Source: Escherichia coli (GTDB taxonomy: Bacteria > Pseudomonadota > Gammaproteobacteria > Enterobacterales > Enterobacteriaceae). From it: 64,000 bases of DNA. Shown here piece after piece: positions 56,001 through 58,515 of the stretch. Below the pieces are notes generated by a model that saw only the letters and a program-made list of their open reading frames with translations, ran no database searches and was not told the DNA's origin. The stretch's first letter is position 1. The number at the start of each line of letters is the position of its first letter. The stretch is taken from assembly GCF_050920415.1 (NCBI RefSeq), contig NZ_CP169309.1; one strand, written 5' to 3'. Position numbers and translations under genes: made by a program.

Positions 56001-56037
56001 TGCTAACGTCAGATTGTTGACAAAGTGCGCGTCGTTC

Positions 56038-56140
56038 ATGCCGGATGCGGCGTGAACGCCTTATCCGGCCTACAAAAATCTTGCCAATTCAATATATTGC
56101 AGGATAGTGTAGGCCTGATAAGCGTAGCGCATCAGGCAGT
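56038..56140. repeat. BIME (two REP palindromes) between fepA and entD
   Basis: tgccggatgcggcgtgaacgccttatccggcctac and gtaggcctgataagcgtagcgcatcaggca in opposite orientation. Confidence 0.75.
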
Positions 56141-56795: not shown

Positions 56796-56916
56796 TTGAC
56801 AACATCTGGTACGATTCGCCCGCAGCCATCACTGACCACGGGCGAAAGTGTAAAGCAGGTGCCTTACCATCCTGACCTGACAACCGGATATGCGGGGATT
56901 ACTCCCCGCACAACGG

Positions 56917-57069
56917 CTACTTCTTCGGTTCGTAAGCGAGAACAGCCCTGAACTCAATATTACGTTCCTTTACGGTGAACTCACACAGCGAGTCGCCGAC
57001 CAGAAGCGTAAATCCCAGCACTGTCAAACACAGCACTATGACCGCCACAAGGGCATATTTCGTCAGCAT
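56917..57069 (-). CDS. hokE: Hok-family toxin, copy 1 ([50 protein letters not shown])
   Basis: 50-aa single-TM peptide; in this copy the upstream mok-like frame is fused in-frame (ORF 56917-57213) through a 1-nt length difference. Confidence 0.85.
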
Positions 57070-57418
57070 GTTTATATTGCCTCCATGCGAAGAAGGGACT
57101 ACCATCCAAATTGTCTGGTTTGGAGTGGCGGCCCCAGGGTTGATAGAAATATCTCCTGGGGCTTCATCTTTCCAGACCTCAGAGTTAACCTGAAACCGGA
57201 AAGCTTCAGGCACCCGCCGTTATCTTACCCTTCCTTAGCAAAATGGCTGTTTATTTATACAGTAAATCCTGTTCCGGACTTTTCATTAGTATTATCGCCC
57301 ATGCCAGTTAAACGACATCGCCCGCAGCCATCACTGACCACGGGCGAAAATGTAAAGCAGGTGCCTTACCACCCTGAACTGACAACCGGATATGCGGGGA
57401 TTACTCCCCGCACAACGG

Positions 57419-57571
57419 CTACTTCTTCGGTTCGTAAGCGAGAACAGCCCTGAACTCAATATTATGTTCCTTTACGGTGAACTCACACAGCGAGTCGCCG
57501 ACCAGAAGCGTAAATCCCAGCACTGTCAAACACAGCACTATGACCGCCACAAGGGCATATTTCGTCAGCAT
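57419..57571 (-). CDS. hokE: Hok-family toxin, copy 2 (..[18 protein letters not shown])
   Basis: 50-aa Hok ORF; one substitution (R35H) relative to copy 1. Confidence 0.85.
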
Positions 57572-57716
57572 GTTTATATTGCCTCCATGCGAAGAAGGGA
57601 CTACCATCCGAGTTGTTGAGGTTCGGAGTGGCAGCCCCAGGGTTGATAGAAATATCTCCTGGGGCTTCATCTTTCCAGACCTCAGAGTAAACCTGAAACC
57701 GGAAAGCTTCAGGCAC
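57483..57716 (-). CDS. mok-like overlapping reading frame, copy 2
   Basis: 77-codon [12 protein letters not shown].. starting 145 nt upstream of hok and ending inside it in a different frame; mok-like arrangement. Confidence 0.45.
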
Positions 57717-57921
57717 CCGCCGTTATCTTACCCTTCCTTAGCAAAATGGCTGTTTATTTATACAGTGAGTCCTGTTTCGGACTTCTGTTGGCAAAACTGA
57801 TCATTGCTCTTAAAACGACATCGCCCGCAGCCATCACTGACCGCGGGCGAAAGTGTAAAGCAGGTGCCTTACCATCCTGACCTGACAACCGGATATGCGG
57901 GGATTACTCCCCGCACAACGG

Positions 57922-58074
57922 CTACTTCTTCGGTTCGTAAGCGAGAACAGCCTTAAACTCAATATTACGTTCCTTCACCGTAAACTCACACAGCGAGTCT
58001 CCGACCAGAACCGTAAATCCCAGCACCGTCAAACACAGCACTATGACTGCCACAAGGGCATATTTCGTCAGCAT
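57922..58074 (-). CDS. hokE: Hok-family toxin, copy 3 (..[32 protein letters not shown]), adjacent to ybdK
   Basis: 50-aa Hok ORF closest to ybdK. Confidence 0.88.
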
Positions 58075-58219
58075 GTTTATATTGCCTCCATGCGAAGAAG
58101 GGACTACCATCCAAATTGTTTGGGTTTGGAGTGGCAGCCCCAGGGTTGATAGAAATATCTCCTGGGGCTTCATCTTTCCAGACCTCAGAGTAAACCTGAA
58201 ACCGGAAAGCTTCAGGCAC
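57986..58219 (-). CDS. mok-like overlapping reading frame, copy 3
   Basis: 77-codon ORF paralogous to 57483-57716. Confidence 0.45.
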
Positions 58220-58515
58220 CCGCCGTTATCTTACCCTTCCTCAACAAAATAGCTGTTTATTTATACAGTTAGTCTTATTTCGGACTTCTCACTACGCATC
58301 AGATCAACCGAAACTAAACCAATTTTTCCTTCGCCCCTCAATCGTCAAAATTCTCCGCCGCCAGCCAGCTCTGCCATAACTTGGCACATTGCAAAAGTAG
58401 CCAAATTGCTTCAGTAGCAATCAGTTCACCATCACCAAAAAAAGAAACATTCCAGAACTTCCGCATCTCTCCCGGCCGCTCCCACTTCTATACTCAAATG
58501 AAAACGCCAACATAA

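Follow-up and report, generated by a model that had tools for sequence, protein, structure and literature searches.

The closest described relative of the array analyzed here is the single hokE/sokE module of Escherichia coli K-12 (b4415/b4835), which shares with it the chromosomal slot between ybdK and entD, the LexA box, the Sok promoter, the tac/fbi pair, and a 50-amino-acid toxin. K-12 differs in having one copy and an IS186B that begins 18 nt past the hokE stop codon, inside the 3' stem-loop, leaving fbi and the terminator detached. A preliminary description of the present DNA described K-12 as carrying a single hokE disrupted by IS186; the copy number and the IS186 are right, but the insertion spares the ORF. 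Two-copy arrays, found in O157:H7, ST131, and ~40% of E. coli, consist of the same unit, with a distinct Sok tail in each unit and a 1-nt deletion in one unit per array. Their spacer equals that between units 2 and 3 of our window (the whole 64-kb stretch of E. coli DNA that was analyzed), whereas the window array includes one further unit on the entD side, attached through another, unrelated 34-nt spacer.

The hok/sok (parB) system of plasmid R1 is a more distant relative, with sequence similarity to hokE too low for blastn. In both, a tac/fbi clamp is combined with an anti-SD element (ucb) and a GC-rich 3' stop hairpin; the sok promoter overlaps the region of the hok SD, and the 5' tail of Sok is single stranded. 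Compared to R1, hokE has a leader that is shorter by 26 nt (with the hok AUG at nt 148 versus nt 174), has no mok AUG at the R1 position, and is preceded by a LexA box, and a plasmid-stabilizing role is not expected for this chromosomal locus. Local tandem duplication of a whole toxin and antisense module in one intergenic region is likewise known from ldr/rdl, ibs/sib, zorO-orzO/zorP-orzP, and hok "islets," and has been recognized for type I modules since at least 2010. A recent survey places 10% of Hok genes in islets of 2 to 6 copies, arising by local duplication, and 13.5% of Escherichia chromosomal hok genes in islets; Faridani 2006 does not mention hokE. The window array is the same in kind, one islet of size three.

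The entD-ybdK gap of the window holds three head-to-tail hokE/sokE units of 502, 503, and 503 bp, flanked by fepA and entD upstream and by ybdK, ybdJ, and ybdF downstream. TRF was silent on the array because the period exceeds its 500-nt limit, and a separate repeat search was used instead, which placed the copy starts at 56808, 57310, and 57813 with the register kept, spacings of 502 and 503 nt, and identities of 93 to 96%. The units and spacers are as follows.

56808..57309, minus strand: unit 1, entD proximal, 502 nt, complete hokE/sokE module; its Sok-tail region has 1 nt fewer than that of units 2 and 3 (deletion at alignment column 195)
57310..57812, minus strand: unit 2, 503 nt, complete hokE/sokE module with a type-B Sok tail
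57813..58315, minus strand: unit 3, ybdK proximal, 503 nt, complete hokE/sokE module
57284..57317, no strand: spacer between units 1 and 2, 34 nt, unrelated in sequence to the spacer between units 2 and 3
57787..57820, no strand: spacer between units 2 and 3, 34 nt, equal to the junction of the common two-copy arrays

Pairwise differences among the three units number 16 to 25 over 470 core columns, and unit 3 is the one nearest to the single K-12 hokE unit (8 differences over ~465 positions). The preliminary description reported three ~502-bp hok/sok-type units between entD and ybdK, and the repeat search, ORFs, and flanks bear this out; its view that the strain has no IS and a triplicated locus also holds, all three copies being IS free. 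The alignment of the units to K-12 hokE/sokE that it proposed is collinear with the annotated K-12 sokE.

All three hokE ORFs are intact and encode Hok/Gef peptides.

56917-57069, minus strand: hokE copy 1 CDS, 50 aa, WP_000956467.1
57419-57571, minus strand: hokE copy 2 CDS, 50 aa, R36H, WP_000956464.1
57922-58074, minus strand: hokE copy 3 CDS, 50 aa, L22V and K41, WP_001354838.1

Counting Met as residue 1, the substitutions are R36H in copy 2 and L22V plus R41K in copy 3; L22V agrees with the preliminary description, and the changes given there as R35H and R40K were each numbered one residue too low. The peptide matches Pfam PF01848 (HOK_GEF) over model positions 1 to 42 of 42 (E = 2.5e-7), placing it in this family, and gives NCBIfam HokA and Hok-family matches with E values of 1e-10 to 1e-13, which fail to reach the curated cutoffs of a model set without a HokE-specific model. 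By exact-peptide lookup, more than 100 collection blocks contain the R36H variant, and more than 100 contain the L22V/K41 variant.

Is the triplication real, and how old is it? Tandem repeats of ~500 bp can be misassembled from short reads, and an overexpanded repeat produced by assembly or scaffolding could in principle mimic such an array. This explanation is scarcely credible, however. Between the window units, 16 to 25 positions differ, and the two junction spacers bear no relation to each other. Identity to E. coli MFDS1022581, in which RefSeq has three hokE annotations, is 100% across the window; the complete genome NZ_CP169399.1 contains the 1,523-nt array at 100% identity, as do GCA_000194575.2, GCA_000194175.2, and GCA_040837325.1, which makes one complete genome and at least three further assemblies produced years apart. 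Three more assemblies carry arrays 97.8 to 99.3% identical to that of the window. The claim of the preliminary description that the array is no assembly artifact is thus upheld by its recurrence in independent assemblies. Moreover, in an alignment of 24 units, those of the three-copy arrays from six complete genomes cluster by position, and positional orthologues differ by 0 to 15 nt versus 15 to 25 nt for paralogues inside the window array. Units sorting by position, with orthologues closer than paralogues, argue that the triplication is an old inherited allele, neither a recent event nor an artifact. An independent recent duplication in each strain was considered and rejected on the same positional orthology across the six genomes.

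The allele is nevertheless rare. Copy number was taken from annotated feature counts, record spans, and junction-specific queries, as whole-array BLAST coverage is unusable for this purpose because single-copy loci tile onto all three query units. Of the 5,426 complete E. coli genomes, exactly 6 (~0.1%) have three copies in a single collinear piece, ~55% have one copy (often with IS186, as in K-12), and ~40% have two. Sampling 40 records at even spacing gave 22 with one copy, 16 with two, 1 with three, and 1 with no hokE under the match, and about half of the single-copy records had an adjoining IS186/IS421 transposase, as in K-12. The spacer between units 2 and 3, which is the two-copy junction, is present in at least 724 genomes, and that between units 1 and 2 in only 3 of the 5,426 complete genomes. 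The novelty implied by the preliminary description was therefore overstated, given that RefSeq already annotates hokE three times at the locus, that two copies are common in E. coli, and that tandem hok islets of 2 to 6 have been published. The array is a rare but already annotated copy-number variant of a known locus and no new kind of element. Its main value as an annotated, literature-consistent hokE/sokE array lies in a clean negative for a new system, together with an element map (LexA box, tac/fbi, Sok, and sok promoter) of three natural IS-free hokE modules, a map which K-12 cannot supply because IS186 severs its 3' end.

The elements of the hok mRNA follow the same minus-strand order in every unit: LexA box, -10 element TAAGAT, +1, tac, 5' hairpin, anti-SD/SD-like pair, hok SD, CDS, 3' hairpin, fbi, and terminator. 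Their positions, with the span of each full-length hok mRNA, are listed below.

56815..57215, minus strand: hok mRNA of unit 1, +1 at 57215 by R1/Rfam homology
57222-57227, minus strand: -10 element TAAGAT of unit 1
57208-57215, minus strand: tac of unit 1
57155-57163, minus strand: anti-SD of unit 1
57130-57138, minus strand: SD-like element of unit 1
57080-57084, minus strand: hok SD of unit 1
56892-56909, minus strand: 3' stop hairpin of unit 1
56857-56864, minus strand: fbi of unit 1
56817-56844, minus strand: terminator hairpin of unit 1, with no U-tract after it
57310..57718, minus strand: hok mRNA of unit 2, +1 at 57718
57711-57718, minus strand: tac of unit 2
57658-57666, minus strand: anti-SD of unit 2
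57633-57641, minus strand: SD-like element of unit 2
57582-57586, minus strand: hok SD of unit 2
57394-57411, minus strand: 3' hairpin of unit 2
57359-57366, minus strand: fbi of unit 2
57319-57346, minus strand: terminator of unit 2, followed by UGUCGUUU
57813..58221, minus strand: hok mRNA of unit 3, +1 at 58221
58214-58221, minus strand: tac of unit 3
58161-58169, minus strand: anti-SD of unit 3
58136-58144, minus strand: SD-like element of unit 3
58085-58089, minus strand: hok SD of unit 3
57897-57914, minus strand: 3' hairpin of unit 3
57862-57869, minus strand: fbi of unit 3
57822-57849, minus strand: terminator of unit 3, followed by UGUCGUUU

The tac sequence is GGGUGCCU, fbi is AGGCACCU, the GC-rich 3' hairpin is GCGGGGAGUAAUCCCCGC, and the hok SD is GGAGG; these four elements and the sok -35/-10 are identical among the three units. 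The anti-SD AGCCCCAGG pairs with the SD-like CCUGGGGCU, which reads CCUGGGGCC in copy 1. The preliminary description expected the fold-back element on the plus strand, but fbi belongs to the 3' end of the minus-strand hok mRNA. Minimum free energy (MFE) folds of the full-length mRNAs (408 to 409 nt) predict in all three the 5'-3' tac/fbi pairing typical of hok/sok systems, as an 8-bp clamp of nt 1 to 8 with nt ~353 to 360, along with a 9-bp anti-SD hairpin, the 3' hairpin, and the terminator. A control fold of an R1-type mRNA gave the homologous long-range clamp from a differing sequence (GGCGCUU/AAGCGCC), so that tac/fbi pairing has been kept by compensatory changes between families. MFE folds of 3'-truncated mRNAs gave no open form for hokE and equally none for the R1-type control; for the truncated R1 mRNA, an open form is experimentally established, which makes these folds uninformative. 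The GC-rich 3' hairpin, the predicted stop for 3' trimming, is present in all units. Terminator-like sites were found by scan for copies 2 and 3 only, and the entD-side 3' flank of copy 1, which has no U-tract, is common to every single-copy locus.

The Sok coordinates were carried over, through the unit alignment, from the annotated MG1655 sokE (b4835), which is 60 nt long, lies on the other strand from hokE, and covers the stretch 44 to 103 nt ahead of the hok AUG.

57113..57171, plus strand: SokE-1, 59 nt, 5' tail GUCUGGUUUG, by homology to the annotated K-12 sokE
57615..57674, plus strand: SokE-2, 60 nt, 5' tail GUUGAGGUUC, by the same homology
58118..58177, plus strand: SokE-3, 60 nt, 5' tail GUUUGGGUUUG, by the same homology
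57077..57105, plus strand: putative sok promoter of unit 1 by homology, -35 TTGCCT at 57077-57082, 17-nt spacer, -10 TACCAT at 57100-57105
57579-57607, plus strand: putative sok promoter of unit 2, identical to that of unit 1
58082-58110, plus strand: putative sok promoter of unit 3, identical to that of unit 1

Each predicted Sok fold consists of a single-stranded 5' tail of 10 to 11 nt, a long hairpin, and a U-rich 3' end, and the predicted sok +1 lies seven nt downstream of the -10. The sok -35 overlaps the complement of the hok SD, a placement that matches the R1-type plasmid sok promoter. Each unit thus appears to encode a cis-antisense Sok with its own promoter, as in hok/sok type I systems generally, and the plus-strand position foreseen for Sok in the preliminary description agrees with homology to K-12 sokE, antisense to each leader. 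A sigma-70 consensus scan at a threshold of 9 of 12 consensus positions found no promoter sites, which is uninformative because sok promoters score under this threshold: by hand count, the hokE sok promoter has 8 of 12 and the R1-type sok promoter ~7 of 12.

A feature overlooked in the preliminary description, the LexA box, is the defining regulatory feature of hokE. Every unit contains CTGTATAAATAAACAG, a perfect CTGT-N8-ACAG site, at -50 to -31 versus the homology-based +1.

57246..57265, minus strand: LexA box of unit 1, TTACTGTATAAATAAACAGC, 31 to 50 nt upstream of the hok mRNA +1
57749..57768, minus strand: LexA box of unit 2, TCACTGTATAAATAAACAGC
58252..58271, minus strand: LexA box of unit 3, TAACTGTATAAATAAACAGC

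The 64-kb window holds three CTGT-N8-ACAG sites, all inside the units, compared to 0.62 expected by chance. In the literature, hokE is listed among the SOS-induced type I toxins whose promoters bear a LexA box, and its box ranks with the better operators, at a heterology index of 4.9. Published work also reports that K-12 hokE is not induced by AZT and that ciprofloxacin upregulates hokE in the IS-free O157:H7 strain EDL933; the removal of fbi and the terminator from the K-12 transcript by IS186B plausibly explains the lack of induction in K-12. With the operators present, and by extension from the K-12 and EHEC literature on repression, the hokE copies in this strain may be under LexA/SOS control.

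Which leader frame could serve as mok? In R1, the mok AUG lies at nt 116 to 118, 8 nt past a GAGG SD, and mok translation must reach the hok SD; a recent survey holds that Mok frames cannot be assigned reliably. The three leaders have no start codon at the R1- or hokC-equivalent mok position, and the MG1655 annotation has no mokE. The overlapping mok-like frame reported for every unit in the preliminary description is present as a 77-codon ORF in copies 2 and 3 but absent as such in copy 1, where the 1-nt deletion joins its upstream part to the hok frame. A listing of all AUG, GUG, and UUG codons in the leaders gave no usable start for this frame: the only possible starts are a GUG at nt 3, too near the 5' end for an SD to fit, and a UUG missing in copy 2. 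No family match was found for it. The 77-codon frame was rejected as mok on these four grounds: no start with room for an SD, loss of the UUG in copy 2, a broken frame in copy 1, and no family match. AUG49, the single candidate start with an SD-like motif (GAGG 9 nt upstream) that also lies under Sok, appears to be the better mok candidate. In K-12, as in copies 2 and 3, its ORF shares the hok frame and would give an 83-aa product; in copy 1 it has 22 codons and stops 15 nt before the hok SD because of the 1-nt deletion. The annotated MokC of K-12 is likewise in frame with HokC. The SD of AUG49 sits in a stable predicted hairpin. Among the loci examined, all eight multicopy arrays have the copy 1 deletion in one unit and one unit only, and neither of the single-copy loci has it.

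Taken together, these features make it very probable that the array comprises three paralogous, individually complete hokE/sokE type I modules, a rare three-copy allele of a copy-variable locus, for which the following SOS/Sok mechanism is proposed. LexA bound to the box over the -35 region, the box being visible in the sequence and repression being taken from K-12/EHEC studies, would keep hok transcription low, and DNA damage would release a full-length hok mRNA of roughly 405 nt. This mRNA would be inert, with tac clamped to fbi, an anti-SD/SD-like hairpin, and the hok SD buried, structures that are predicted in all three copies. By analogy to plasmid R1, slow 3' trimming to the GC-rich hairpin would remove fbi and allow a translatable refold. 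A constitutive but unstable plus-strand Sok of 59 to 60 nt, whose sequence and predicted fold are evident here, would pair with the leader through its 5' tail and direct the mRNA to decay. When hok mRNA outruns Sok, the 50-aa HokE would enter the inner membrane and depolarize the cell, and TadA A-to-I editing of the Tyr46 UAC codon to Cys probably raises its toxicity. Three copies would triple the SOS-inducible toxin templates, and since the Sok 5' tails differ by copy, each Sok would best match its own mRNA. Some features sit uneasily with this mechanism. The perfect 9-bp SD-like/anti-SD pairing resembles the "locked" A106G mutant of R1, so activation may be inefficient; there is no R1-equivalent mok start, copy 1 is without a terminator U-tract, and its AUG49 ORF ends before the hok SD.

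Such features raise the question of whether the modules are conserved-looking but silent relics, unable to reach the translatable state, with three copies reflecting neutral drift through unequal recombination. In earlier work, the wild-type chromosomal loci tested, hokA, hokB, and hokC but not hokE, are reported to mediate no postsegregational killing and no rifampicin activation, and this agrees with relic status, as do the R1 A106G-like stem, the want of a canonical mok, and the free segregation of copy numbers 1, 2, and 3 in the species. Across 24 units, however, hok has a pairwise pN/pS of 0.089, and there is little or no variation in tac, fbi, the two SDs, the two promoters, or the LexA core, which fits purifying selection on a working module. 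Overexpressed HokE is toxic according to published work, ciprofloxacin induces hokE in EDL933, and an IS has struck the K-12 locus, as one would predict were the intact form costly. Silent relics are an unlikely explanation.

Partial disablement of copy 1, leaving only copies 2 and 3 fully functional, is somewhat improbable. It would account for the 22-codon AUG49 ORF of copy 1, compared to 83 codons in frame with hok in its neighbors, in view of the R1 rule that leader translation must reach the hok SD, and for the presence of terminator-like sites only in copies 2 and 3. Against this, AUG49 is only a candidate, with its SD in a stable hairpin, and no decay is visible in the Hok ORF of copy 1. 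Both peculiar states of copy 1 are also long-lived, because the deletion recurs in every multicopy array examined and the entD-side flank without a U-tract in every single-copy locus. Three individually complete modules remain the preferred reading.

The units diverge unevenly. Of the 31 variable columns of the window units, 6 are concentrated in a patch of 16 columns (Fisher p = 2.5e-4; scan-statistic permutation p = 0.035) that comprises nt 1 to 11 of Sok and the 5 nt directly upstream of the Sok start. The divergent patch lies at 57108-57125 in unit 1, 57610-57628 in unit 2, and 58113-58131 in unit 3. Most of the effect is due to the unit 2 tail, which is of type B: between copies 1 and 2, 6 of 16 patch positions differ but only 1 of 153 CDS positions (scan p = 0.0004), with a like pattern in the O157 pair (p = 0.0008), and copies 1 and 3 differ at only two patch positions. 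For the first 20 nt of Sok, predicted duplex energies are about -40 to -44 kcal/mol for cognate and -25 to -33 kcal/mol for noncognate pairs, and full 60-nt Sok duplexes are predicted to stay very stable. Each unit has a distinct Sok tail in the eight multicopy arrays examined, which amount to only about three independent lineages, and all six three-copy arrays are ordered A-B-C. Does the divergence of Sok 5' tails between neighboring copies limit cross-protection? One speculative and rather unlikely scenario is that tails and targets are kept different between neighbors while gene conversion homogenizes the toxin ORF, yielding partly orthogonal antitoxins, with array size tuning the threshold and strength of HokE arrest after DNA damage. 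A gene conversion tract homogenizing the CDS, or relaxed constraint on an inherently self-complementary segment, would explain the patch just as well as selection for orthogonality.

One minor observation concerns annotation. The Rfam model RF01794 ("sok") matches each unit once, at 82 to 85 bits against a gathering score of 59, on the minus strand. This model spans the R1 hok mRNA from +1 to the hok AUG and in effect describes the hok leader; therefore, its strand must not be read as the Sok strand, and a "sok" model that reports the hok-sense strand could mislead automated strand assignment.

Each hokE unit, where the hok mRNA is encoded on the minus strand and the Sok antisense RNA on the plus strand, is matched by a covariance model whose name and orientation are at odds, and each carries one LexA box:

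57061-57215, 57563-57718 and 58066-58221, minus: matches of units 1, 2 and 3 to the Rfam model RF01794 ("sok antitoxin")
57246-57265, 57749-57768 and 58252-58271: perfect CTGT-N8-ACAG LexA boxes, one per unit

In all three units the strand matched by RF01794 is the hok sense strand, and in K-12 the annotated sokE lies on the strand opposite to the match. Since the consensus of RF01794 runs from the hok mRNA +1 to the hok AUG, the model represents the hok leader, and automated pipelines using it could mis-assign the Sok strand. The LexA boxes are the only three CTGT-N8-ACAG sites in the 64-kb window; SOS control of the hokE units was absent from the preliminary description.

Three further elements recur within, or distinguish, the units:

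about 57116 (alignment column 195): 1-nt deletion in the Sok-tail/target region of copy 1
56892-56909, 57394-57411 and 57897-57914, minus: 3' stop hairpin GCGGGGAGTAATCCCCGC of units 1, 2 and 3
56932-56934, 57434-57436 and 57937-57939, minus: Tyr46 codons of hok copies 1, 2 and 3
56929-56941, 57431-57443 and 57934-57946, minus: GCUUACGAACCGA context of the Tyr46 codon

Eight multi-copy arrays and two single-copy loci were examined for the column-195 deletion, which shifts the reading frame of the candidate leader ORF starting at AUG49: each array has it in exactly one unit, and both single-copy loci lack it. The stop hairpin has the form GGGG-N6-CCCC, and in K-12 IS186B is placed exactly within it, with flanks overlapping by ~12 nt. 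This insertion point fits the target preference of IS186, and therefore every hokE unit would be an IS186 hotspot.

Tyr46 is encoded by UAC followed by G, inside GCUUACGAACCGA, in all three hok ORFs, and this context resembles the anticodon arm of tRNA-Arg2. According to a recent preprint, TadA performs A-to-I editing of hokE mRNA at the Tyr46 codon (Y46C), and the same preprint states that this editing creates the partner of Cys29.

The edges and junctions of the array vary among strains. Two SDR-family oxidoreductase genes replace entD left of the array in ST131-type genomes (L010, 1-1193; L018), and thus the locus itself differs from lineage to lineage on its entD side. Across the six three-copy arrays, the unit 1/2 spacer is not uniform: judged from BLAST alignment extents, R32_14_1F (L007) and 2020CK-00188 (L008) appear to have a unit 2/3-like spacer at both junctions, and the spacer of EC42405, a third three-copy strain, differs from the window's own unit 1/2 spacer (57284-57317). 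As only three complete genomes carry the window's unit 1/2 spacer, this distribution suggests either that junctions were remodelled later or that three-copy arrays arose by more than one route.

Several neighbouring features were also recorded:

56010-56116: REP-like palindrome and ES036 match, fepA-entD intergenic region
about 57038-57311 and about 58043-58272, plus: pseudogenes called by RefSeq/PGAP as frameshifted "hypothetical protein" genes, antisense to hok copies 1 and 3
58338-58466, minus: hypothetical protein of 42 aa (RefSeq/PGAP, WP_001225242.1), flanked by unit 3 and ybdK

The antisense pseudogenes and WP_001225242.1 resemble false ORF predictions across the leader of hok, the Sok region and the promoter. 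In the fepA-entD intergenic region, the palindrome scores 38 bits against naRNA4, short of that model's gathering score (59.5). The ES036 (CssrF) sRNA model matches there over 42 nt with 44 bits, which exceeds its gathering threshold of 37.6.
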